Source: Flectonema sp. DT1601
Lineage: Eukaryota
NCBI GenBank assembly: GCA_964019425.1
Contig: OZ025801.1
Coordinates: 992,001 to 1,056,000 of the forward strand
Direction of reading: 5' to 3'
Length of the DNA: 64,000 nt
Position 1 is the stretch's first letter. Every line of letters begins with the position of its first letter. Below, one piece after another: positions 3,121-43,215 of this stretch. Position numbers and translations under genes: made by a program. The notes under the pieces are model-generated. The model saw only the letters and a program-made list of their open reading frames with translations. It ran no database searches and was not told the origin of the DNA.

Positions 3121-3326
3121 GTATATTTTGGACCACTTCGGGGTATTTTGGGCCACTTTGGGGTATTTTGGGCCACTTTGGGGTATTTTGGGCCACTTTG
3201 GGGTATTTTGGGCCACTTTGGGGTATTTTGGGCCACTTCGGGGTATTTTGGGCCACTTCGGGGTATTTTGGGCCACTTTGGGGTATTTTGGGCCATTTGC
3301 AAAAAAAGTGGGGTATTTTGGGCCAT
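3121..3326 (-). repeat. Same 20-bp minisatellite inverted, about 10 units (right arm)
   Basis: ACTT(T/C)GGGGTATTTTGGGCC tandem units are the reverse complement of the left arm. Confidence 0.95.
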
Positions 3327-3611
3327 TGCCCAAAAAAAAAAAAAAAATCAGCTGATTAGTTATAACTTTGTTAAGCTAAACCAACTTCTACTTTATCATT
3401 TATGTATTGTCAATGCAGCAATTCATTTACTAAGTTAGGTCCTGTCTTCCTATGGCTTTAGCTTTCATTTTTAAGGCTTACTACATACATACGTCCTTTT
3501 TTTCTTGCCAGATTTGTTACAATTATTAGTCAGTCTTCTTTGAATGAGTTTTAAATTATTTTTTCAAACAGATTTTTTTAATCATCTTTCTCAAACACTT
3601 CTGTTCTTTTT

Positions 3612-3696
3612 ATGATGAAATATCAATATATGCCGCCCCAGTCGGAGCTACGGCGATGCCCGAAAAGGCATTCTATAACCCTTAGGACACCGCTGA
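3612..3696 (+). ncRNA. Box C/D snoRNA A (first copy, box C to box D); double guide resembling U31/snR67 plus U58
   Basis: Box C ATGATGA at 3612, D' CGGA, box D CTGA at 3693. D' guide TGCCGCCCCAGT is antisense to the LSU P-loop ACUGGGGCGGCA; the +5 rule gives the E. coli G2251 / yeast Gm2619 position. D guide CCTTAGGACACC is antisense to LSU GGUGUCCUAAGG, the site guided by vertebrate U58. Confidence 0.92.
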
Positions 3697-3736
3697 CACA
3701 ACTCAATTCATTTTGTCTTCACTGTTGCTGTTCGAT

Positions 3737-3816
3737 ATGATGCATAACACAACCCTTTTGGTTAAAGGCTACCCCTTGATGTTACCAAAAATAAATGTCA
3801 AACTCAACAGGTCTGA
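3737..3816 (+). ncRNA. Box C/D snoRNA B (first copy, box C to box D); LSU rRNA guide
   Basis: Variant box C ATGATGC at 3737, C'-like TTGATGT, box D CTGA at 3813. D guide GTCAAACTCAACAGG is antisense to conserved LSU CCUGUUGAG(C/U)UUGAC. Internal stem TTTTGGT/ACCAAAA. Confidence 0.85.
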
Positions 3817-6800
3817 CTTGAACCATCATCTCATCCTTCTCCTGCACTTCTTCACTTTTATGATGAAATATCAATATATGCCGCCCCAGTCGGAGCTACG
3901 GCGATGCCCGAAAAGGCATTCTATAACCCTTAGGACACCGCTGACACAACTCAATTCCTTTTGTCTTCATTCTTGCTGTTCGATATGATGCATAACACAA
4001 CCCTTTTGGTTAAAGGAAACCCCTTGATGTTACCAAAAATAAATGTCAAACTCAACAGGTCTGACTTGAACCAGCATCTCATCCTTCTCCTGCACCTTCA
4101 TTTTTATGATGAAATATCAATATATGCCGCCCCAGTCGGAGCTACGGCGATGCCCGAAAAGGCATTCTATAACCCTTAGGACACCGCTGACACAACTCAA
4201 TTCCTTTTGTCTTCACTCTTGCTGTTCGATATGATGCATAACACAACCCTTTTGGTTAAAGGAAACCCCTTGATGTTACCAAAAATAAATGTCAAACTCA
4301 ACAGGTCTGACTTGAACCAGCATCTCATCCTTCTCCTGCACCTTCATTTTTATGATGAAATATCAATATATGCCGCCCCAGTCGGAGCTACGGCGATGCC
4401 CGAAAAGGCATTCTATAACCCTTAGGACACCGCTGACACAACTCAATTCCTTTTGTCTTCACTCTTGCTGTTCGATATGATGCATAACACAACCCTTTTG
4501 GTTAAAGGAAACCCCTTGATGTTACCAAAAATAAATGTCAAACTCAACAGGTCTGACTTGAACCAGCATCTCATCCTTCTCCTGCACCTTCATTTTTATG
4601 ATGAAATATCAATATATGCCGCCCCAGTCGGAGCTACGGCGATGCCCGAAAAGGCATTCTATAACCCTTAGGACACCGCTGACACAACTCAATGCTTTTT
4701 GTCTTCACTCTTGCTGTTCGATATGATGCATAACACAACCCTTTTGGTTAAAGGCAACCCCTTGATGTTACCAAAAATAAATGTCAAACTCAACAGGTCT
4801 GACTTGAACCAGCATCTCATCCTTCTCCTGCACCTTCATTTTTATGATGAAATATCAATATATGCCGCCCCAGTCGGAGCTACGGCGATGCCCGAAAAGG
4901 CATTCTATAACCCTTAGGACACCGCTGACACAACTCAATTCATTTTGTCTTCACTCTCGCTGTACGATATGATGCATAACACAACCCTTTTGGTTAAAGG
5001 AAACCCCTTGATGTTACCAAAAATAAATGTCAAACTCAACAGGTCTGACTTGAACCAGCATCTCATCCTTCTCCTGCACCTTCATTTTTATGATGAAATA
5101 TCAATATATGCCGCCCCAGTCGGAGCTACGGCGATGCCCGAAAAGGCATTCTATAACCCTTAGGACACCGCTGACACAACTCAATTCATTTTGTCTTCAC
5201 TCTCGCTGTTCGATATGATGCATAACACAACCCTTTTGGTTAAAGGAAACCCCTTGATGTTACCAAAAATAAATGTCAAACTCAACAGGTCTGACTTGAA
5301 CCAGCATCTCATCCTTCTCCTGCACTCCTTCATTTTTATGATGAAATATCAATATATGCCGCCCCAGTCGGAGCTACGGCGATGCCCGAAAAGGCATTCT
5401 ATAACCCTTAGGACACCGCTGACACAACTCAATGCTTTTTGTCTTCACTCTTGCTGTTCGATATGATGCATAACACAACCCTTTTGGTTAAAGGCAACCC
5501 CTTGATGTTACCAAAAATAAATGTCAAACTCAACAGGTCTGACTTGAACCAGCATCTCATCCTTCTCCTGCACCTTCATTTTTATGATGAAATATCAATA
5601 TATGCCGCCCCAGTCGGAGCTACGGCGATGCCCGAAAAGGCATTCTATAACCCTTAGGACACCGCTGACACAACTCAATTCATTTTGTCTTCACTCTCGC
5701 TGTACGATATGATGCATAACACAACCCTTTTGGTTAAAGGAAACCCCTTGATGTTACCAAAAATAAATGTCAAACTCAACAGGTCTGACTTGAACCAGCA
5801 TCTCATCCTTCTCCTGCACCTTCATTTTTATGATGAAATATCAATATATGCCGCCCCAGTCGGAGCTACGGCGATGCCCGAAAAGGCATTCTATAACCCT
5901 TAGGACACCGCTGACACAACTCAATTCATTTTGTCTTCACTCTCGCTGTTCGATATGATGCATAACACAACCCTTTTGGTTAAAGGAAACCCCTTGATGT
6001 TACCAAAAATAAATGTCAAACTCAACAGGTCTGACTTGAACCAGCATCTCATCCTTCTCCTGCACTCCTTCATTTTTATGATGAAATATCAATATATGCC
6101 GCCCCAGTCGGAGCTACGGCGATGCCCGAAAAGGCATTCTATAACCCTTAGGACACCGCTGACACAACTCAATTCCTTTTGTCTTCACTCTTGCTGTTCG
6201 ATATGATGCATAACACAACCCTTTTGGTTAAAGGCAACCCCTTGATGTTACCAAAAATAAATGTCAAACTCAACAGGTCTGACTTGAACCATCACCTCAT
6301 CCTTCTCCTGCACTTCTTCACTTTTATGATGAAATATCAATATATGCCGCCCCAGTCGGAGCTACGGCGATGCCCGAAAAGGCATTCTATAACCCTTAGG
6401 ACACCGCTGACACAACTCAATTCATTTTGTCTTCACTCTTGCTGTTCGATATGATGCATAACACAACCCTTTTGGTTAAAGGCAACCCCTTGATGTTACC
6501 AAAAATAAATGTCAAACTCAACAGGTCTGACTTGAACCATCACCTCATCCTTCTCCTGCACTTCTTCACTTTTATGATGAAATATCAATATATGCCGCCC
6601 CAGTCGGAGCTACGGCGATGCCCGAAAAGGCATTCTATAACCCTTAGGACACCGCTGACACAACTCAATTCCTTTTGTCTTCACTCTTGCTGTTCGATAT
6701 GATGCATAACACAACCCTTTTGGTTAAAGGCAACCCCTTGATGTTACCAAAAATAAATGTCAAACTCAACAGGTCTGACTTGAACCATCACCTCATCCTT

Positions 6801-8609
6801 CTCCTGCACTTCTTCACTTTTATGATGAAATATCAATATATGCCGCCCCAGTCGGAGCTACGGCGATGCCCGAAAAGGCATTCTATAACCCTTAGGACAC
6901 CGCTGACACAACTCAATTCCTTTTGTCTTCACTCTTGCTGTTCGATATGATGCATAACACAACCCTTTTGGTTAAAGGCAACCCCTTGATGTTACCAAAA
7001 ATAAATGTCAAACTCAACAGGTCTGACTTGAACCATCACCTCATCCTTCTCCTGCACTTCTTCACTTTTATGATGAAATATCAATATATGCCGCCCCAGT
7101 CGGAGCTACGGCGATGCCCGAAAAGGCATTCTATAACCCTTAGGACACCGCTGACACAACTCAATTCCTTTTGTCTTCACTCTTGCTGTTCGATATGATG
7201 CATAACACAACCCTTTTGGTTAAAGGCAACCCCTTGATGTTACCAAAAATAAATGTCAAACTCAACAGGTCTGACTTGAACCATCACCTCATCCTTCTCC
7301 TGCACTTCTTCACTTTTATGATGAAATATCAATATATGCCGCCCCAGTCGGAGCTACGGCGATGCCCGAAAAGGCATTCTATAACCCTTAGGACACCGCT
7401 GACACAACTCAATTCCTTTTGTCTTCACTCTTGCTGTTCGATATGATGCATAACACAACCCTTTTGGTTAAAGGCAACCCCTTGATGTTACCAAAAATAA
7501 ATGTCAAACTCAACAGGTCTGACTTGAACCAGCATCTCATCCTTCTCCTGCACCTTCATTTTTATGATGAAATATCAATATATGCCGCCCCAGTCGGAGC
7601 TACGGCGATGCCCGAAAAGGCATTCTATAACCCTTAGGACACCGCTGACACAACTCAATGCTTTTTGTCTTCACTCTTGCTGTTCGATATGATGCATAAC
7701 ACAACCCTTTTGGTTAAAGGCAACCCCTTGATGTTACCAAAAATAAATGTCAAACTCAACAGGTCTGACTTGAACCAGCATCTCATCCTTCTCCTGCACC
7801 TTCATTTTTATGATGAAATATCAATATATGCCGCCCCAGTCGGAGCTACGGCGATGCCCGAAAAGGCATTCTATAACCCTTAGGACACCGCTGACACAAC
7901 TCAATTCCTTTTGTCTTCACTCTTGCTGTTCGATATGATGCATAACACAACCCTTTTGGTTAAAGGCAACCCCTTGATGTTACCAAAAATAAATGTCAAA
8001 CTCAACAGGTCTGACTTGAACCATCACCTCATCCTTCTCCTGCACTTCTTCACTTTTATGATGAAATATCAATATATGCCGCCCCAGTCGGAGCTACGGC
8101 GATGCCCGAAAAGGCATTCTATAACCCTTAGGACACCGCTGACACAACTCAATTCATTTTGTCTTCACTCTTGCTGTTCGATATGATGCATAACACAACC
8201 CTTTTGGTTAAAGGCAACCCCTTGATGTTACCAAAAATAAATGTCAAACTCAACAGGTCTGACTTGAACCAGCATCTCATCCTTCTCCTGCACTCCTTCA
8301 TTTTTATGATGAAATATCAATATATGCCGCCCCAGTCGGAGCTACGGCGATGCCCGAAAAGGCATTCTATAACCCTTAGGACACCGCTGACACAACTCAA
8401 TTCCTTTTGTCTTCATTCTTGCTGTTCGATATGATGCATAACACAACCCTTTTGGTTAAAGGCAACCCCTTGATGTTACCAAAAATAAATGTCAAACTCA
8501 ACAGGTCTGACTTAAACCTTCATCTCATCCTTGGCTAAAGGATGTTGTAAAATTTTTGATATTTATTCGTTTGAATAAAAATATATGTCCATAGATTTTA
8601 GACAATAAA

Positions 8610-9953
8610 ATGGCAGCTGTTGGTTCTTGTGATTGCACAGCCCCGGCGATGGTTTCTGTCGGAAGATTCAAATTGTTGTGGACAGAATTAGGTTCAGAGA
8701 TAGAGAAGAATTGTAAGACTGAAGATGATCAACTGGTAGATATCGCGAAGGTTCTTGAGATGATAAAAAGTGTCCCGAATAGATTGATGGAGTGTAGTCC
8801 GGGAGCAGAAGAAAAGACACGCGAATTTGGAGTCCCAACCAAGACTGGTGTAGAAAAGTATCCAGTAGCAGTATGGGAGAAAGTAAAAGATTTTATTGAC
8901 AGCAAAGTATGGGATTTCGACGAACCCGCATTACCATCAGACAAAGATGATCCTCTTTTAAACAAGAAGCTTTCGTACGGTAATTTCATGTTGGGATTTG
9001 ATTTTCATATCACTCCAGAAGGTCCTAAACTTATCGAGGTAAACACCAATGCTGGGGGACTGGCCACTGCGTTATCAATTGGCGGATGTAACCAGTTTGA
9101 AAAAACTCTTTTGAAACAAAACTGGATTACTGCGCTGCTTGACGAATACAAATCTGCTACTGGAGCTGAACTTCCGCGTAATATGGTGATAGTCGATGAG
9201 AACCCATCTGAACAAGGGCTTTATGCAGAAATGCTTCACTTTGCAAAACTAGCAGAGTCACACATACATAAGGAGTGTAAAAGTACTTCATTTCGGTGTT
9301 TCGTTTGTGATCCTTCTGAACTGACTGTTGACAAAGAGACGAATGTGTTGAACTACACAGATGATTTCGGTACTAAGGTAGCTATTGACTTGATGTACAA
9401 CAGACTTACTGATTTTAGATTTGAGGAAGAAGCCACTCAACACATCAGGAAGGCTTGTCTTGACAACAAACTCGTAGTCACACCTCATCCAGCATCATAC
9501 GTTAGAGTTGCTGATAAAAGGTTGTTACCGTTAATGGAACACGATGTCGTACCAGCGACAATCCCTTTGTCATCTAAACCGATGGAATTTTGGGGGAAAA
9601 ATAAAAAGAAATATGTGTTTAAACCAGCATCAGGAAATGCATCAAAAGGAGTGTATCGCGGAGATAAAATCAGCGTAACAAAGTTAAAAACCCTTCCGAT
9701 GGATGAGACGCTGGCCCAGGAATTCTGTCCACCTGGTGAGTCAGATGACGGTAGTAAGTATGACCTTCGTGTGTACACAAGTGGTGATCAGATACTGGGT
9801 GTTGCTAGCCGGCAGTTTACAGGACAGGTTATGGAAATGCGTTCTGAAAATTCTGGTTTTAGAGCAGCCTTACCAGAAAACGTTTGCTGCTTCAGTGCAC
9901 TCCCGGGATTCTTCCAAAATGAGGAAGTCGCATCTCCGAATTGTTGCAAGTGA
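8610..9953 (+). CDS. ATP-grasp ligase, circularly permuted / glutathione-synthetase-like bacterial type
   Basis: 447-aa ORF with motifs GFDFH...GPKLIEVNTNAGG, DLMYNRLTDF, ADKRLL, FKPASGNASKGVYRG, AQEF, YDLRVY. The E-x-N motif lies N-terminal to the K-P/G-loop, which is the permuted order. Confidence 0.8.
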   Translation: MAAVGSCDCTAPAMVSVGRFKLLWTELGSEIEKNCKTEDDQLVDIAKVLEMIKSVPNRLMECSPGAEEKTREFGVPTKTGVEKYPVAVWEKVKDFIDSKVWDFDEPALPSDKDDPLLNKKLSYGNFMLGFDFHITPEGPKLIEVNTNAGGLATALSIGGCNQFEKTLLKQNWITALLDEYKSATGAELPRNMVIVDENPSEQGLYAEMLHFAKLAESHIHKECKSTSFRCFVCDPSELTVDKETNVLNYTDDFGTKVAIDLMYNRLTDFRFEEEATQHIRKACLDNKLVVTPHPASYVRVADKRLLPLMEHDVVPATIPLSSKPMEFWGKNKKKYVFKPASGNASKGVYRGDKISVTKLKTLPMDETLAQEFCPPGESDDGSKYDLRVYTSGDQILGVASRQFTGQVMEMRSENSGFRAALPENVCCFSALPGFFQNEEVASPNCCK

Positions 9954-12730: not shown

Positions 12731-15100
12731 ATGGGAAGTGCTTGCTCAAGCGAACCGGCAAAGACAGAACAGAAGAAGCCAGCTAAGGAGCAGAAGAAAC
12801 CAGATGGAGGTAAACCAAAACCTGACACCAAACCTGAAAAAGAAACGAAGCCGGACAAGACGCCTGATGAGGTTAAGCCAACACCGGAACCAACACCGGA
12901 TCCAAAACCTGAAGAGGAAAAGAAACCTGAACCTAAACCTGAACCTGAAAAGGAAAAACCAGATCCAAAACCAGTAGAAGATGGAGGCAATGATTCAAAG
13001 CCAATTCCAGACACAGTTCCTGATGAGAAACCATCAACTAATGTTCCCGTGGTAGTTACTCGAACTGATATTAGAAAGATGTCATCAGATGATGTTGATC
13101 GTTTCTTTAAAGCATTTGAAAAGACGATGGAAAACAAATCTGGCCCAGGTACCAGTGAGTTCTTTCGAATTGCGTCATACCACGGAGAACCTTCTCCATA
13201 TTACTGTCAACATGGAAGGGAGACATTCCCAGGTTGGCATAGAGTCTATTTACTTGAGTTTGAGAAAGCTCTACAAGTAGCTGACAAGTCACTTGGTAAT
13301 GATGGGAATATTTCATTACCATATTGGGATTGGGGGAATCAATCTGAATTATCAAACGGATTACCTGACATCGTAAGAGAGCGTCACACGGGATGGCCAG
13401 CAGACTTTTGGCCAACAGAACTCCGAAGCAACTCGATGACTTCATCACTTCGCAGAGCTCCAAATTCAAACATAGCGAATCAACTGAGATCGTGGGAGTT
13501 ACCGGAACAAGCAAAGCAATGCATGCTAGCAACAGAACATTGGGCTTTCGCATCAACTCGTTGGCCAGGAACATACCCTTCAGTTGAAGTACCTCACAAC
13601 TCAATTCATGTTATAGTCGGTGGTAGTAGAGGTAACATGGGTAGTGTTGCTTGGGCTGCGTATGACATCGCATTCTGGCTTCATCATTGCAACGTTGATC
13701 GTCTTTACGAAGTGTACTTGGGATTAGAACCTGACTCACATGATGAGTTCAGAAACTTTCAACAAACTCAACCTCAGAATCGTTTTAATGATCAATTCGA
13801 ACCTTTCAGAAAGAGTGATGGGTCGGCATACTTCCCAACTGATACTTTCAAAACTAAAGATCTTGGATACGTTTACTCTGAGTTACCACCAGTACCAGAT
13901 ACCCAACTGTTGAGAGAAGCACCAACTGTATTGTTGTTTGCTGATGTGAATATCGCAAAGTTTGAATCGAAATGTTACCAAATTCATGTTTTTGTTGTGG
14001 ACAAAGACCAACCTTGGACAGAACTAAAAACCGAGTCGGACCTTGACTACGACAGCAAGAACTATGCTGGAGGACAAGGTGTATTTGGTAGAGGAAGTGA
14101 GTGTGATAATTGTGTGACCCGTCCACCTACTGATATCATAATCGATATTTCTGAGACAATGCGAAGACTGGGGTTAACGAGAACAACCGCATCTGCTAAG
14201 ATCTACATCGTTGAAACTACAACAGAAACTACCGACCTGTTATCTGTTGCTGACACAGAATTACCACAGCCTTTGATAACAGGACCTTTATTCGACATCC
14301 CTTCTGATGCCGTAGTCAGTAAAGAAAGTCAATTGTCTCCAGACTCTGTAAAATCACTACAACTGTTTCTAAAGAAACATGGCTACTATGAAACAGATTT
14401 AGACGGTGATTTCGGACAAAACACACACCAAGCTATTGTCGACTTCCAAGAGGCTGCCGGGATTGCAGCAGACGGTCTCGCAGGACCAATCACGAGAACC
14501 AAAATGACTAATAAAAGATGTCAAAACATCGACGGCTTTGCGAAGAATGACGTAACCGATTCGAGTTGTCGTAAGGAGAATTTCGACTACCAAAATAAGA
14601 AAGTTTTAAAGTACTTTATTAGTACTCAGCCGGGATACCTCACCAGGGATGATGCTGTTGGTGCTATTCAGAAGGCGTGTGAAAACTACAATGGAGTTGC
14701 AGGGCTGAAGTTGGAAATGACTGAAGCAAAATCCGAAGCTGACATAACTTTTTGTTGGAAAATGTTTGAGGCGAGCGGACATATTTTCAGATTTGATGGA
14801 AACGGAGGAGTACTTGGACGGGGAACTGCTGGATTGGTTGAGTTTGATGCGGCAGAGAGATGGGTAACTGGAAATGACGCCTCAAAGATATCAAACCTCC
14901 ACGATAAGAAAACATGGTTCCGTGGTATCCCTTCTATTTCTCTGTACCACACTGCTCTTCATGAACTTGGACACACTCTTGGAATGGAACATTCTTCCAA
15001 CCCATCAAACGTTATGTCTCCATTTTACAATCCTTCTTTATCAGTGTTGTCTGATGGTGATAAGGCTACCCTTGTTAAACTTTGGGGTCCTGCTGAGTAA
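12731..15100 (+). CDS. Tyrosinase + peptidoglycan-binding-like + matrixin (M10 metalloprotease) fusion protein
   Basis: 789 aa. MGSACSS acylation motif and K/P/E-rich linker. CuA (YHG...HGRETFPGWHR), LPYWDW, CuB (HNSIH...FWLHHCNVDR), CDNC. PG-binding-like LQLFLKKHGYY...DGDFG...DGLAGP. Metzincin HELGHTLGMEH with Met-turn VMSPFY. Confidence 0.92.
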   Translation: MGSACSSEPAKTEQKKPAKEQKKPDGGKPKPDTKPEKETKPDKTPDEVKPTPEPTPDPKPEEEKKPEPKPEPEKEKPDPKPVEDGGNDSKPIPDTVPDEKPSTNVPVVVTRTDIRKMSSDDVDRFFKAFEKTMENKSGPGTSEFFRIASYHGEPSPYYCQHGRETFPGWHRVYLLEFEKALQVADKSLGNDGNISLPYWDWGNQSELSNGLPDIVRERHTGWPADFWPTELRSNSMTSSLRRAPNSNIANQLRSWELPEQAKQCMLATEHWAFASTRWPGTYPSVEVPHNSIHVIVGGSRGNMGSVAWAAYDIAFWLHHCNVDRLYEVYLGLEPDSHDEFRNFQQTQPQNRFNDQFEPFRKSDGSAYFPTDTFKTKDLGYVYSELPPVPDTQLLREAPTVLLFADVNIAKFESKCYQIHVFVVDKDQPWTELKTESDLDYDSKNYAGGQGVFGRGSECDNCVTRPPTDIIIDISETMRRLGLTRTTASAKIYIVETTTETTDLLSVADTELPQPLITGPLFDIPSDAVVSKESQLSPDSVKSLQLFLKKHGYYETDLDGDFGQNTHQAIVDFQEAAGIAADGLAGPITRTKMTNKRCQNIDGFAKNDVTDSSCRKENFDYQNKKVLKYFISTQPGYLTRDDAVGAIQKACENYNGVAGLKLEMTEAKSEADITFCWKMFEASGHIFRFDGNGGVLGRGTAGLVEFDAAERWVTGNDASKISNLHDKKTWFRGIPSISLYHTALHELGHTLGMEHSSNPSNVMSPFYNPSLSVLSDGDKATLVKLWGPAE

Positions 15101-35214: not shown

Positions 35215-35844
35215 ATGGTTTCGCTTAAGGTGCAAAAGAGGCTCTCCGCCAAGGTCCTGAAGTGTGGTAAGGGACGTGTTTGGCTTGACCCTAACGAGAC
35301 GTCCGACATCGTCCAGGCGAACTCCAGACGTCAGATCGAGAAGCTCGTAAAGGATGGTTACATCATCCGTCGCCCAAAGAACAGCATCTCCAGATTCAGA
35401 TGGAGAAAGGTTCTCGTGGCAAAGAGAAAGGGACGTCACAACGGACAGGGTAAGCGTAAGGGAGCTTCCGAGGCTCGTATGCCAACCAAGGAACTCTGGG
35501 TAAGACGTATTCGTGTCCTCAGAAGATTGTTGAAGAAGTTCCGTGAGGCCAAGAAGATCGACAAGTACGCCTACCACAAGATGTACTTGGAGTGCAAGGG
35601 TAACGTTTACAAGAACAAGAGAACCCTTATGGAGCACATCCACAAGGAGAAGGGTATCAGAGCCAGAGAGAAGGAGCTCCAGGACCAGCTTGAGGCCAAG
35701 AAGATGAAGTCGATCGCCAAGCGTGAGAAGCTCGCGAAGAAGGAGACCAAGCGTCGTGAGAAGGAGAGAGCCGAGCGTGGATCAACCACCACCAAGAAGG
35801 CTGACACCAAGAAGACTGACTCCAAGAAGAAGTCAAAGAAGTAA
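35215..35844 (+). CDS. RPL19: 60S ribosomal protein eL19, copy 1
   Basis: [28 protein letters not shown]...GKRKG...LRRLLKK...KGNVYKNKR. The true ATG is at 35215 by comparison with the other copies. Confidence 0.98.
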
Positions 35845-36207
35845 AATATTCATCAAAAGAATTAATTATCAAATCATAAAAAAAAAAAAAAAACTCGATT
35901 CCATAAACAAAAACTCTTGTTGAAATCAATGTAGTGTTCCTTAAGCGCAACCACCGCATGGCAGTCTTAAATGCGCGTGTGAGTGTACTCCCGTTTACTG
36001 CCCACTGGGCTGTATTCTTTCGTGTAAAGAGCGGGTCATTATTTTACAATCGTATCCAATCACATTAATATTATTCTTCAACCCCCGACATCACTCGAAT
36101 TAATCATACACACAATATGAGGCAACAGTTCCCTATGGAGACATTTCATTGTAATCATAGTAATTAGGTTCCTGAGCTCGTGATGACTTCTTTCTCCTTT
36201 TCCTTCA

Positions 36208-39200
36208 CCTTTATGATGAAATATCAATATATGCCGCCCCAGTCGGAGCTACGGCGATGCCCGAAAAGGCATTCTATAACCCTTAGGACACCGCTGACAC
36301 AACTCAATGCTTTTTGTCTTCATTCTTGCTGTTCGATATGATGCATAACACAACCCTTTTGGTTAAAGGAAACCCCTTGATGTTACCAAAAATAAATGTC
36401 AAACTCAACAGGTCTGACTTGAACCATCATCCCATCCTTCTCCTGCACTTCTTCACTTTTATGATGAAATATCAATATATGCCGCCCCAGTCGGAGCTAC
36501 GGCGATGCCCGAAAAGGCATTCTATAACCCTTAGGACACCGCTGACACAACTCAATGCTTTTTGTCTTCATTCTTGCTGTTCGATATGATGCATAACACA
36601 ACCCTTTTGGTTAAAGGAAACCCCTTGATGTTACCAAAAATAAATGTCAAACTCAACAGGTCTGACTTGAACCATCACCTCATCCTTCTGCTGCACTCCT
36701 TCACTTTTATGATGAAATATCAATATATGCCGCCCCAGTCGGAGCTACGGCGATGCCCGAAAAGGCATTCTATAACCCTTAGGACACCGCTGACACAACT
36801 CAATTCCTTTTGTCTTCACTCTCGCTGTTCGATATGATGCATAACACAACCCTTTTGGTTAAAGGAAACCCCTTGATGTTACCAAAAATAAATGTCAAAC
36901 TCAACAGGTCTGACTTGAACCATCACCTCATCCTTCTCCTGTACTCCTTCAATCTTATGATGAAATATCAATATATGCCGCCCCAGTCGGAGCTACGGCG
37001 ATGCCCGAAAAGGCATTCTATAACCCTTAGGACACCGCTGACACAACTCAATTCCTTTTGTCTTCACTCTCGCTGTTCGATATGATGCATAACACAACCC
37101 TTTTGGTTAAAGGAAACCCCTTGATGTTACCAAAAATAAATGTCAAACTCAACAGGTCTGACTTGAACCATCACCTCATCCTTCTCCTGCACTCCTTCAC
37201 TTTTATGATGAAATATCAATATATGCCGCCCCAGTCGGAGCTACGGCGATGCCCGAAAAGGCATTCTATAACCCTTAGGACACCGCTGACACAACTCAAT
37301 TCCTTTTGTCTTCACTCTCGCTGTTCGATATGATGCATAACACAACTCTTTTGGTTAAAGGAAACCCCTTGATGTTACCAAAAATAAATGTCAAACTCAA
37401 CAGGTCTGACTTGAACCATCATCCCATCCTTCTCCTGCACTTCTTCACTTTTATGATGAAATATCAATATATGCCGCCCCAGTCGGAGCTACGGCGATGC
37501 CCGAAAAGGCATTCTATAACCCTTAGGACACCGCTGACACAACTCAATTCCTTTTGTCTTCACTCTCGCTGTTCGATATGATGCATAACACAACTCTTTT
37601 GGTTAAAGGAAACCCCTTGATGTTACCAAAAATAAATGTCAAACTCAACAGGTCTGACTTGAACCATCACCTCATCCTTCTGCTGCACTCCTTCAATCTT
37701 ATGATGAAATATCAATATATGCCGCCCCAGTCGGAGCTACGGCGATGCCCGAAAAGGCATTCTATAACCCTTAGGACACCGCTGACACAACTCAATGCTT
37801 TTTGTCTTCATTCTCGCTGTTCGATATGATGCATAACACAACCCTTTTGGTTAAAGGAAACCCCTTGATGTTACCAAAAATAAATGTCAAACTCAACAGG
37901 TCTGACTTGAACCATCACCTCATCCTTCTGCTGCACTCCTTCAATCTTATGATGAAATATCAATATATGCCGCCCCAGTCGGAGCTACGGCGATGCCCGA
38001 AAAGGCATTCTATAACCCTTAGGACACCGCTGACACAACTCAATGCTTTTTGTCTTCATTCTCGCTGTTCGATATGATGCATAACACAACTCTTTTGGTT
38101 AAAGGAAACCCCTTGATGTTACCAAAAATAAATGTCAAACTCAACAGGTCTGACTTGAACCATCACCTCATCCTTCTGCTGCACTCCTTCATTTTTATGA
38201 TGAAATATCAATATATGCCGCCCCAGTCGGAGCTACGGCGATGCCCGAAAAGGCATTCTATAACCCTTAGGACACCGCTGACACAACTCAATGCTTTTTG
38301 TCTTCATTCTCGCTGTTCGATATGATGCATAACACAACCCTTTTGGTTAAAGGAAACCCCTTGATGTTACCAAAAATAAATGTCAAACTCAACAGGTCTG
38401 ACTTGAACCATCACCTCATCCTTCTGCTGCACTCCTTCAATCTTATGATGAAATATCAATATATGCCGCCCCAGTCGGAGCTACGGCGATGCCCGAAAAG
38501 GCATTCTATAACCCTTAGGACACCGCTGACACAACTCAATGCTTTTTGTCTTCATTCTCGCTGTTCGATATGATGCATAACACAACTCTTTTGGTTAAAG
38601 GAAACCCCTTGATGTTACCAAAAATAAATGTCAAACTCAACAGGTCTGACTTGAACCATCACCTCATCCTTCTCCTGTACTCCTTCAATCTTATGATGAA
38701 ATATCAATATATGCCGCCCCAGTCGGAGCTACGGCGATGCCCGAAAAGGCATTCTATAACCCTTAGGACACCGCTGACACAACTCAATGCTTTTTGTCTT
38801 CATTCTCGCTGTTCGATATGATGCATAACACAACCCTTTTGGTTAAAGGAAACCCCTTGATGTTACCAAAAATAAATGTCAAACTCAACAGGTCTGACTT
38901 GAACCATCACCTCATCCTTCTGCTGCACTCCTTCACTTTTATGATGAAATATCAATATATGCCGCCCCAGTCGGAGCTACGGCGATGCCCGAAAAGGCAT
39001 TCTATAACCCTTAGGACACCGCTGACACAACTCAATTCCTTTTGTCTTCACTCTCGCTGTTCGATATGATGCATAACACAACCCTTTTGGTTAAAGGAAA
39101 CCCCTTGATGTTACCAAAAATAAATGTCAAACTCAACAGGTCTGACTTGAACCATCATCTCATCCTTCTCCTGCACTCCTTCATTTTTATGATGAAATAT

Positions 39201-39525
39201 CAATATATGCCGCCCCAGTCGGGGCTACGGCGATGCCCGAAAAGGCATTCTATAACCCTTAGGACACCGCTGACACAACTCAATGCTTTTTGTCTTCATT
39301 CTCGCTGTTCGATATGATGCATAACACAACCCTTTTGGTTAAAGGAAACCCCTTGATGTTACCAAAAATAAATGTCAAACTCAACAGGTCTGACTTGAAC
39401 CATCACCTCATCCTTCTCCTGTACTCCTTCAATCTTATGATGAAATATCAATATATGCCGCCCCAGTCGGAGCTACGGCGATGCCCGAAAAGGCATTCTA
39501 TAACCCTTAGGACACCGCTGACATA
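36208..39525 (+). repeat. Tandem array 2: 248-bp units with 14 copies of snoRNA A and 13 of snoRNA B
   Basis: Same unit as array 1. Starts at box C of A (36213) and ends just after box D of A (39521). Confidence 0.97.
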
Positions 39526-39995
39526 GCTTATTCTTTGTCTTCACAAATACATTATGCATGATGGACAATCTCGTTGACGTCGTCTTTATTGTTAATCAAT
39601 CAGTAGTTGATTGTCTGATATTATTATTATTATTATTAAATTGGATCATTTGCAGTCCAAAGGTCAATTTTTTCAATGAGGTAACTTAGTTTAGTTTATG
39701 TTGTTTTCTTGTAATTAAAAGTAGTTAGCTTTTAAAGCTAAAGACTAACTCTCCCTAAACTGAAGAGTCAGAGTTGTCTGGTGATTGAATTGCACATACA
39801 GGGAGGTAAAAAGGTTGTGAAGGCTGTTCACATTACTGATGGAGCGACTTCTTCGTGCATGTCGTCGGCAGTACGGTCATATGGGTTTGTAGTCACTGGA
39901 CAATACTACCACTGATAGTGAGCAGTACACTTTTGTTTATCAGGTTTGTCTGTAGCTGATATATATTTTCCCCTCATCTCAGATCACTTGCCGAA

Positions 39996-40625
39996 ATGGT
40001 TTCGCTTAAGGTGCAAAAGAGGCTCTCCGCCAAGGTCCTGAAGTGTGGTAAGGGACGTGTTTGGCTTGACCCTAACGAGACGTCCGACATCGTCCAGGCG
40101 AACTCCAGACGTCAGATCGAGAAGCTCGTTAAGGATGGTTACATCATCCGTCGCCCAAAGAACAGCATCTCCAGATTCAGATGGAGAAAGGTTCTCGTGG
40201 CAAAGAGAAAGGGACGTCACAACGGACAGGGTAAGCGTAAGGGAGCTTCCGAGGCTCGTATGCCAACCAAGGAACTCTGGGTAAGACGTATTCGTGTCCT
40301 CAGAAGATTGTTGAAGAAGTTCCGTGAGGCCAAGAAGATCGACAAGTACGCCTACCACAAGATGTACTTGGAGTGCAAGGGTAACGTCTACAAGAACAAG
40401 AGAACCCTTATGGAGCACATCCACAAGGAGAAGGGTATCAGAGCCAGAGAGAAGGAGCTCCAGGACCAGCTTGAGGCCAAGAAGATGAAGTCGATCGCCA
40501 AGCGTGAGAAGCTCGCGAAGAAGGAGACCAAGCGTCGTGAGAAGGAGAGAGCCGAGCGTGGATCAACCACCACCAAGAAGGCTGACACCAAGAAGACTGA
40601 TTCTAAGAAGAAGTCAAAGAAGTAA
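39996..40625 (+). CDS. RPL19: 60S ribosomal protein eL19, copy 2
   Basis: Identical 209-aa protein. Confidence 0.98.
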
Positions 40626-41437
40626 GTTCCTTAAGCATGTGTTCGATTCCATTCCAGTCATTAGTTTTTACCATGAACCACTACCAGAGGGAAGTGAGAA
40701 GAGAAAAGACAAATACAATCACTTTTTACCTTTCCAAGAAAAAAACGAGTGAAATACAAAAAAAAGTACAGTCAGAGTTCCTGTAAATATGTTTCGTCAT
40801 CACTGTGGCAAGGGTTCAGTTCTTTTTTAAAAAAAAAAAAAAAAAAAAAGTCAGCTTACTACAAAAAGTGCCGAAATTGTGTCGGAATTCGACTTTTTAC
40901 ACTTTGTGGCTTCTAGTGGTTATATTTCTTCTCAACTTCAGACAACACAATAGTAGAAGTTTCAGGGTAGTTGTGACATTGGTAACAACAACTACAGCAA
41001 TTTCGTTGCAATTCCCATGTTCAACATTGACTTTGAGTGCAGTAAGTAAACATAATATTATGATAAACAGACATTGTTTAATGTGGTGTAGTAGGTGCAA
41101 CGAAAGGTTTCCTCAAAATGAGAAAGCATGTCACCTCATATGGTGCTATAGAGGAAGACAATGGTGTTTTCATTAGTTGTGAAAATATAACTTCCTCGGC
41201 ATTCAGGTTCTATGAACACGTTGTATTCTGTGAGTGTGTTATTGGTTAGTCCTGTAGTCAAAGAGTTGTAATTCTTTCAGTAATAATGTTGTTTAACATT
41301 GCGTTCCCTGAAATATCGCACTCGAGAAGGATACCGCAGACAACACTGATAGCCTGAAGTGTTCTCTTTGGATCACCAAAAGATTATTCATTTAAATCGT
41401 TATACTATTTCCCCCTCATCTCAGATCACTTGCCGAA

Positions 41438-42067
41438 ATGGTTTCGCTTAAGGTGCAAAAGAGGCTCTCCGCCAAGGTCCTGAAGTGTGGTAAGGGACGT
41501 GTTTGGCTTGACCCTAACGAGACGTCCGACATCGTCCAGGCGAACTCCAGACGTCAGATCGAGAAGCTCGTTAAGGATGGTTACATCATCCGTCGCCCAA
41601 AGAACAGCATCTCCAGATTCAGATGGAGAAAGGTTCTCGTGGCAAAGAGAAAGGGACGTCACAACGGACAGGGTAAGCGTAAGGGAGCTTCCGAGGCTCG
41701 TATGCCAACCAAGGAACTTTGGGTAAGACGTATTCGTGTCCTCAGAAGATTGTTGAAGAAGTTCCGTGAGGCCAAGAAGATCGACAAGTACGCCTACCAC
41801 AAGATGTACTTGGAGTGCAAGGGTAACGTTTACAAGAACAAGAGAACCCTTATGGAGCACATCCACAAGGAGAAGGGTATCAGAGCCAGAGAGAAGGAGC
41901 TCCAGGACCAGCTTGAGGCCAAGAAGATGAAGTCGATCGCCAAGCGTGAGAAGCTCGCGAAGAAGGAGACCAAGCGTCGTGAGAAGGAGAGAGCCGAGCG
42001 TGGATCAACCACCACCAAGAAGGCTGACACCAAGAAGACTGACTCCAAGAAGAAGTCAAAGAAGTAA
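41438..42067 (+). CDS. RPL19: 60S ribosomal protein eL19, copy 3
   Basis: Identical 209-aa protein. Confidence 0.98.
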
Positions 42068-42585
42068 GCACCCTTCTTTTTACCTCTAATGCGAGTTGAG
42101 TGAGCGAAACCTGCTTTCATTGTCATTTCGAATTTCGGAAAAAAAAAAAAAAAAAAAAACGTAGAAAAATTTAAAAAAAAAAAAAAAACTAAAAAAAACG
42201 GGTTCTACGGACTCGAACAAAAAAAAAAAAAAAAAAACCATTGATTGTTACCTAGAGTAGTAGGGGGTACAGTCAACACAGACTGTCAGCCAATACAATA
42301 AATAAGTTCTCATTTCTTCTCCAGGTCATCAGTTCGCTTCAGAGAACAACAGCAGTACGGTATTCTGGTATCCATGGCTGTTATATATGTGTGTGGATCG
42401 GATACTACAACAAGAGGCATAATGTATTGTAGTTCGTAGAGACTGTTTGTAGTAGTGTTGATTTTTAAGTAGTTAATCGAAATATATATTGTACGTTGCG
42501 AAAGATATAAACCTCGCGAAGGTATTATTTGTAACCAGGTTGTTCGTTTACTTCATTACTCTCCGTCCACAGATCATTCGACAAA

Positions 42586-43215
42586 ATGGTTTCGCTTAAG
42601 GTGCAAAAGAGGCTCTCCGCCAAGGTCCTGAAGTGTGGTAAGGGACGTGTTTGGCTTGACCCTAACGAGACGTCCGACATCGTCCAGGCGAACTCCAGAC
42701 GTCAGATCGAGAAGCTCGTAAAGGATGGTTACATCATCCGTCGCCCAAAGAACAGCATCTCCAGATTCAGATGGAGAAAGGTTCTCGTGGCAAAGAGAAA
42801 GGGACGTCACAACGGACAGGGTAAGCGTAAGGGAGCTTCCGAGGCTCGTATGCCGACCAAGGAACTCTGGGTAAGACGTATTCGTGTCCTCAGAAGATTG
42901 TTGAAGAAGTTCCGTGAGGCCAAGAAGATCGACAAGTACGCCTACCACAAGATGTACTTGGAGTGCAAGGGTAACGTCTACAAGAACAAGAGAACCCTTA
43001 TGGAGCACATCCACAAGGAGAAGGGTATCAGAGCCAGAGAGAAGGAGCTCCAGGACCAGCTTGAGGCCAAGAAGATGAAGTCGATCGCCAAGCGTGAGAA
43101 GCTCGCGAAGAAGGAGACCAAGCGTCGTGAGAAGGAGAGAGCCGAGCGTGGATCAACCACCACCAAGAAGGCTGACACCAAGAAGACTGACTCCAAGAAG
43201 AAGTCAAAGAAGTAA
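42586..43215 (+). CDS. RPL19: 60S ribosomal protein eL19, copy 4
   Basis: Identical 209-aa protein. Confidence 0.98.

Follow-up and report, generated by a model that had tools for sequence, protein, structure and literature searches.

Two tandem arrays of a 248-bp unit lie in a 64,000-nucleotide (nt) stretch of the Flectonema sp. DT1601 genome (GenBank assembly GCA_964019425.1, contig OZ025801.1, positions 992,001–1,056,000, forward strand), referred to hereafter as the window. Tandem Repeats Finder (TRF) assigned 19.9 copies to positions 3607–8532 and 13.4 copies to a second array at 36201–39523. A first-pass annotation proposed that this apparent satellite is an amplified cassette of two C/D small nucleolar RNAs (snoRNAs), A and B. 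The C and D boxes, the register of the guides with the D and D' boxes, and published trypanosomatid counterparts all support that proposal. When copies were counted by their C boxes, array 1 contained 20 A and 20 B, and array 2 contained 14 A and 13 B. The window thus holds 34 copies of A (85 nt) and 33 of B (80 nt), all on the + strand, exactly the numbers that had been claimed. The units are 246–248 bp long and run head to tail, with nothing in them but the two C/D genes and spacers of 40–43 nt. Parts of the cassette are listed below for its first copy.

3607..8532, + strand: array 1, 20 copies of the A+B cassette, unit 246–248 bp
36201..39544, + strand: array 2, 14 A and 13 B, between RPL19 copies 1 and 2
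3612..3696, + strand: snoRNA A, with C box 3612–3618, D' box CGGA 3643–3646 and D box 3693–3696
3628..3642, + strand: A D' guide, fifth base pairing with the G equivalent to Escherichia coli G2251 (P-loop)
3656–3663, + strand: candidate C' box of A
3678..3692, + strand: A D guide, fifth base pairing with the G equivalent to E. coli G2282
3697..3736, + strand: spacer 1, 40 nt, pyrimidine-rich, 10 variants among 33
3737..3816, + strand: snoRNA B, with C box 3737–3743 and D box 3813–3816
3758–3761 and 3776–3782, + strand: candidate D' and candidate C' boxes of B
3797..3812, + strand: B D guide, fifth base pairing with the G equivalent to E. coli G2067
3817..3859, + strand: spacer 2, 41–43 nt, pyrimidine-rich, 11 variants among 32

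A extends from its C box AUGAUGA to its D box CUGA and B from AUGAUGC to CUGA. Both RNAs thus have the layout expected of C/D snoRNAs, in which a C box close to the 5' end and a CUGA close to the 3' end are 70–120 nt apart. The candidate D' box of B reads UUGG. The genes are intergenic, separated by short spacers and arranged head to tail on the coding strand, as in a reiterated snoRNA cluster. The arrays had been described as beginning or ending almost exactly at snoRNA boundaries. There is indeed no truncated copy, but the wording is a little strong, as all four array ends lie in spacer; similarity at the array edges extends ∼4–10 nt 5' of the first C boxes and ∼22 nt 3' of the last D boxes. 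The end of array 1 is separated by 77 bp from an open reading frame (ORF) at 8610. A lone C-box-like heptamer at 36180 precedes the first A of array 2 by 33 nt, and no separate RNA could be assigned to it.

Guide elements and their predicted rRNA targets

Pairing was assessed only on the rRNA of other eukaryotes. Loci for eukaryotic large-subunit (LSU) rRNA were fetched with two patterns, one derived from the A guides (39 loci) and one from the B guide (116 loci); the six loci tested were confirmed as LSU by Rfam. The antisense elements end exactly at the D or D' boxes and pair with eukaryotic LSU rRNA over 12–15 bp, with perfect runs of 14, 12–14 and 15 bp on four rDNA loci. When a 20-nt window was slid along the unit against one rDNA locus (L121), the three best Watson–Crick runs peaked at unit positions 202, 32 and 82, which correspond to the B D box, the A D' box and the A D box. 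Among 5000 shuffled guides, 0, 8 and 0 reached the observed run. The match of B to L121 is there by construction; the two matches of A are not.

The two sets of loci could be checked against each other. Of the loci picked with the A guides, 21 of 39 extend to the B site, and all 21 pair with B at 14 of 15 positions. Both sites are present in 85 of the 116 loci picked with the B guide, and 33 of these 85 give a perfect 14-bp run with the A D' guide, as compared with one of 39 in the A-picked set. This indicates that the A and B guides fit the same subset of rRNAs, a subset that appears to be euglenozoan-like. The fetched rRNAs mostly carry G opposite guide position 1 (a G–U pair); a metagenome scan for LSU rRNA with both targets of snoRNA A, in which an adenine was required at that position, returned no locus.

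On E. coli 23S rRNA the fifth base of the A D' guide falls on G2251. Direct pairing of the A D and B D guides with E. coli 23S yielded no true site, and numbering therefore comes from alignment, which places the three predicted 2'-O-methylation sites at the equivalents of G2067, G2251 and G2282. Pairing and alignment thus agree with the earlier assignment of all three targets to LSU domain V, near the peptidyl-transferase centre; the G2067-equivalent site is in helix 74. The two target sites of A are 32 nt apart in L121, on either side of one short rRNA hairpin.

Counterparts of all three guides were found by eye in the printed rows of supplementary file 11 of a trypanosomatid study (PMC13487219). 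The B D guide together with its D box is identical over 19 nt to Trypanosoma brucei TB11Cs4C3 and over 17 nt to LM27Cs1C3. The A D guide shares an 11-nt core with LM22Cs1C2/TB5Cs1C1, and the A D' guide shares 15 of 17 nt with its counterpart in LM5Cs1C2/TB11Cs2C1. In the same rows these guides are assigned to positions 1046 (A D'), 1077/1078 (A D) and 655 (B) of Leishmania major LSU3; the 32 nt from 1046 to 1078 equal the spacing of the A sites in L121. The fifth base of each guide pairs with a site that is methylated in yeast (the G2251 equivalent) or assigned to counterpart guides in Leishmania and T. brucei (the G2282 and G2067 equivalents).

Several properties weigh against A and B being conventional guides, in addition to the use of rRNA from other organisms. 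Neither RNA matched an Rfam family at gathering score. A scored 19.9 bits (E 0.12) against snR67 (RF01177), missing the gathering score of 55; up to E 10 it matched snR67 and GlsR4, with the C box, guide, CGGA D' box and C' box aligned, and we describe it as snR67-like only. B matched no Rfam snoRNA family even at E 10. The D' box of A and both C' boxes are non-canonical or degenerate, the boxes are not enclosed by a terminal stem, and no strong structure emerged on free folding. The lack of an Rfam match would suit an ordinary satellite with box-like motifs arising by chance, or silent fragments derived from rRNA, and scattered rRNA fragments are reported in the Diplonema papillatum genome (PMC10161547). 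Against this stand three antisense runs in exact D+5 register, guides identical to validated trypanosomatid guides, conservation that is confined to the RNAs, and an order and spacing of the three elements unlike any rRNA fragment. Such an origin is scarcely credible, and we conclude that A and B are, as judged from sequence, very probably functional modification guides.

A fourth target was considered for the 5' element of B, near E. coli position 1700. The match is 10 nt with at most one G–U pair, occurs in two of the 35 loci that show the region, and shrinks to 8 bp with UUGG as the D' box; this target is not supported. Scanning elsewhere in the window, with 11-nt rRNA complementarity as the criterion, turned up no additional C/D guides. 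The eukaryotic LSU rRNA pattern also matched 39 GTDB prokaryote contigs (loci L002–L040); the GTDB locus tested (L026, L041) was complete eukaryotic rDNA containing a group I intron, indicating contamination.

Neighbouring genes

Among ORFs of at least 120 amino acids (aa), 24 of 28 are on the + strand, and the four on the minus strand overlap + strand ORFs, a bias that would be expected of a polycistronic run. Other repeated features of the window include the following.

35215..43215, + strand: four RPL19 genes (35215, 39996, 41438 and 42586), bracketing array 2 and co-oriented with it
53800..55752, + strand: nine-copy, ∼65-nt single-hairpin AGA-box element, likely a pseudouridine guide, with variable spacers

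The RPL19 copies are 98–99% identical in DNA, encode an identical protein and are set in unrelated intergenic regions. The protein matches a cluster labelled Flectonema neradi at 96% identity and D. papillatum at 81%, followed by other diplonemids, which identifies the host as a diplonemid.

The AGA-box element resembled Rfam TB11Cs5H1 weakly (17.5 bits, E 2.3). Its pocket would pair with a conserved U at E. coli-equivalent position 2004, with 6+7 pairs at 15 nt from the box in locus L105; this target ranked among the top three matches only in L105, of 15 loci scanned. The predicted target is upstream of domain V. The hairpin is preserved across copies, with no two-sided compensatory changes. 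The element is likely to be a pseudouridine guide for this conserved LSU uridine. Its first copy overlaps the 3' end of an FKBP ORF (52872–53858), which may consequently be spliced or end earlier than predicted.

Directly after array 1 is a 447-aa ORF (8610–9953, + strand) that had no Pfam match. A motif near residues 128–150 resembles bacterial ATP-grasp ligases, and the gene was possibly acquired horizontally. On the other side, arrays of a 20-bp unit at 1344–1495 and 3124–3340 are mutually inverted around ∼1.6 kb and adjoin poly(A) runs; they end ∼270 bp before array 1 and resemble a transposon whose terminal inverted repeats are themselves repeated. A 789-aa protein (12731–15100, + strand) combines tyrosinase, peptidoglycan-binding and M10 peptidase domains, an unusual fusion.

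Sequence variation and the meaning of copy number

The first-pass annotation held that the guides are invariant while the spacers vary. In 32 complete units, 4 of 165 snoRNA columns were variable, as compared with 19 of 83 spacer columns (Fisher p 5e-7, with columns that are not independent events), and the mean pairwise difference within arrays was 0.004 in the RNAs and 0.06–0.07 in the spacers. Overall, variation is ∼20-fold greater in the spacers. The three guides are identical in every copy and the boxes are intact in 66 of 67 copies. The description holds for the guides but not for the whole of the RNAs: one of the 34 A copies (at 39189) carries an altered D' box, and the B copies vary at three internal columns.

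A similar contrast was seen in contigs assembled from the public run X4 and compared with window positions 36150–36470. These contigs contained two unit types at near-equal depth, one with five differences and one diverged, and could reflect another type of array or the presence of a related species. In the diverged unit, A had two substitutions in 85 nt and B had four plus one insertion in 80 nt, whereas spacer 1 had 13 substitutions and five insertions in 40 nt (RNA versus spacer 1, Fisher p 1e-6) and spacer 2 was replaced by unalignable sequence. None of the 73 guide and box positions scored was changed, and the C, D and A D' boxes were kept; the candidate D' box of B was changed from UUGG to UUGA.

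It might be supposed that the cassette is real but that the assembler inflated it into arrays of 20 and 14 copies. The window is without N, 22 of the 32 units are distinct, only three adjacent pairs are identical, and no full-unit haplotype is common to the two arrays. Array 1 contains a repeated three-unit pattern, and in contigs of both X4 and a second public run, X5 (both found by small shares, 0.10 and 0.05), the unit loops back on itself by 246 nt. Heterogeneous units and head-to-tail loops in two public runs make inflation very unlikely. The X4 contigs are without RPL19, and depth in such contigs does not equal copy number: a shared 34-nt node at 12.9 is the sum of the two loops (6.39 + 6.36), at most a hint of long arrays. 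Contigs from the RNA run X2 and from run X1 gave no match to the unit, a result that the use of contigs and filtering makes uninformative.

What the arrays do is probably best explained by a two-C/D-snoRNA cassette amplified in tandem, cut from a polycistronic transcript and guiding three LSU methylations, with copy number raising the supply. The arrays would be read through with the + strand gene run; consistent with co-transcription, nearly all long ORFs and all the snoRNA copies are on that strand. RNAs of 80–95 nt would be released from the pyrimidine-rich spacers, trimmed as in trypanosomatids, and loaded as A and B on fibrillarin particles, directing fibrillarin to 2'-O-methylate three guanosines of this organism's rRNA. 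A, bearing two guides for nearby sites, would likely bind both at once. Copies may have been expanded by unequal crossover and mixed by gene conversion, as suggested by variable sites that are mostly two-state and shared among copies and by the three-unit pattern of array 1. The extra copies would be retained because such genomes rely on dosage, and not on promoters, to tune their genes.

The first-pass annotation went further and suggested selection for dosage. A single D' change is the only decay seen across the snoRNA copies, which favours such selection, and in Leishmania snoRNA gene dosage correlates with rRNA modification (PMC8713814). Other observations pull the opposite way. Single-copy changes (two in the RNAs and one in a spacer) are roughly proportional to length, and this lack of bias means that the conservation contrast may predate amplification. 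Conservation is evidence of functional sequences, not of a need for 34 copies. In T. brucei the two-repeat TB11Cs2C1 gave 7934 reads in run I and the six-repeat TB11Cs4C3 gave 173 (PMC3273796, table S-4), indicating that copy number need not set abundance. That tandem amplification is general here is suggested by the nearby nine-copy AGA-box RNA and four RPL19 genes, which weaken a reading specific to the peptidyl-transferase centre. On balance, copy number has probably been selected for dosage; selection for dosage of the peptidyl-transferase-centre sites in particular is plausible.

The same snoRNAs could also be functional in a setting where their number is neutral, a short unit having run away by unequal crossover while a few copies suffice. 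Two-state, shared variable sites look like a reshuffling of a few old haplotypes, the RNAs show no shortage of single-copy changes, and one copy has an altered D' box; tandem duplications abound in the D. papillatum genome (PMC10161547), and yeast lacking snR67 and two other guides is viable (PMC11121408). Neutrality sits less well with guides kept in all copies, boxes kept in all but one and no copy decayed, with four of four array ends that spare whole genes, with two separate arrays and with the looped form of the diverged X4 unit, and we regard it as possible but doubtful. Quite improbable, in our view, is a need for A, and perhaps B, in bulk as stoichiometric chaperones of pre-rRNA folding or processing around the P-loop, methylation being secondary. 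The close spacing of the two A targets would fit such a role; TB11Cs2C1, the G2251 guide, is among the most abundant T. brucei snoRNAs and acts in rRNA processing (PMC3273796, PMC6411936), and a chaperone role has been proposed for another Leishmania C/D RNA (PMC13487219). The processing role of TB11Cs2C1, however, concerns the small subunit, and A is without the small-subunit guide of that RNA. The D. papillatum 28S rRNA is unfragmented (PMC10161547), so that the extra cleavages of trypanosomes are probably not needed, and TB11Cs4C3 and TB5Cs1C1 are unnamed in the main text of the T. brucei rRNA-processing paper. We therefore retain amplification for supply as the preferred account. An extension of it is unlikely. 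In that extension, diplonemids control how ribosomes are modified through tandem arrays of single snoRNA cassettes, which resemble rDNA and evolve in concert; here the arrays would supply a selected 34-fold dose of a re-paired double guide clamping both sides of the P-loop hairpin. Guide genes would possibly outnumber rDNA units, of which the D. papillatum assembly has more than 20. If it were true, copy number would be a tunable dial on peptidyl-transferase-centre methylation.

The cassette makes three exact, testable methylation predictions. Its copy number also offers a natural system in which to ask if the level of rRNA modification depends on how many snoRNA genes there are, a connection described to date as the Leishmania correlation. 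Rfam thresholds miss both A and B, and arrays of this kind would be masked as satellite DNA.

Comparison with known snoRNA clusters

Literature searches found no description of diplonemid modification-guide snoRNAs, and the term 'snoRNA' is absent from the D. papillatum genome paper (PMC10161547) and seven of its supplements. Repeated snoRNA clusters as such are already known (PMC2613932, PMC2784804, PMC6562600), as the first-pass annotation had stated for trypanosomatids and Euglena; Euglena gracilis has multi-copy, linked guide snoRNA genes (PMC2784804). Trypanosomatid clusters are likewise intergenic and co-oriented, consist of short genes and short spacers 'usually repeated several times', sometimes occupy a second place on the same chromosome (PMC2613932), and have the same three guide elements. 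They are usually a mixture of C/D and AGA-box genes (PMC2613932), whereas the cassette here has two C/D genes only.

The copy number had been called unusually high, and against T. brucei it is. The entries under '# of genomic repeats' run from 1 to 8 in the rows of table S-4 covered, namely parts 3 and 4 with excerpts of part 2 (PMC3273796), with 2 for TB11Cs2C1, 3 for TB5Cs1C1 and 6 for TB11Cs4C3. The 33–34 copies found here are about four times the highest of these T. brucei values. The older T. brucei assembly may under-count, as such assemblies collapse arrays.

B resembles TB11Cs4C3/LM27Cs1C3 in having a single listed D-guide region and a C box whose seventh base is not A. It differs in length (80 versus 90–101 nt), in a middle that is dissimilar by eye, and in its 33 copies versus six in T. 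brucei. The two guide elements of A are borne in trypanosomatids by separate RNAs, TB11Cs2C1/LM5Cs1C2 and TB5Cs1C1/LM22Cs1C2, with other partners and in opposite box positions. Yeast snR67 (RF01177) and Giardia GlsR4 are like A in carrying the G2251-site guide in the D' position, and the snR67 consensus shares the CGGA D' box and a similar C' box. In yeast, snR67 guides Gm2619, the G2251 site, and has Um2724 as its second site (PMC11121408), whereas the D guide of A points to the G2282 equivalent. The sequences compared show guide shuffling within Euglenozoa, with guides that are separate in trypanosomatids united in A, an RNA whose 5' half is like that of yeast snR67.

Mammalian SNORD113–116 and rat Bsr, which are not known to have rRNA targets, are in imprinted host transcripts, whereas the arrays described here are intergenic and have conventional rRNA targets. 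The likeness is in scale and history, these being large tandem C/D arrays shaped by non-allelic recombination and conversion (PMC11028025). What the window adds is a real diplonemid snoRNA cassette of an unannotated type, with a known euglenozoan arrangement, an unusually high copy number and one new guide pairing; it departs from known clusters mainly in degree.

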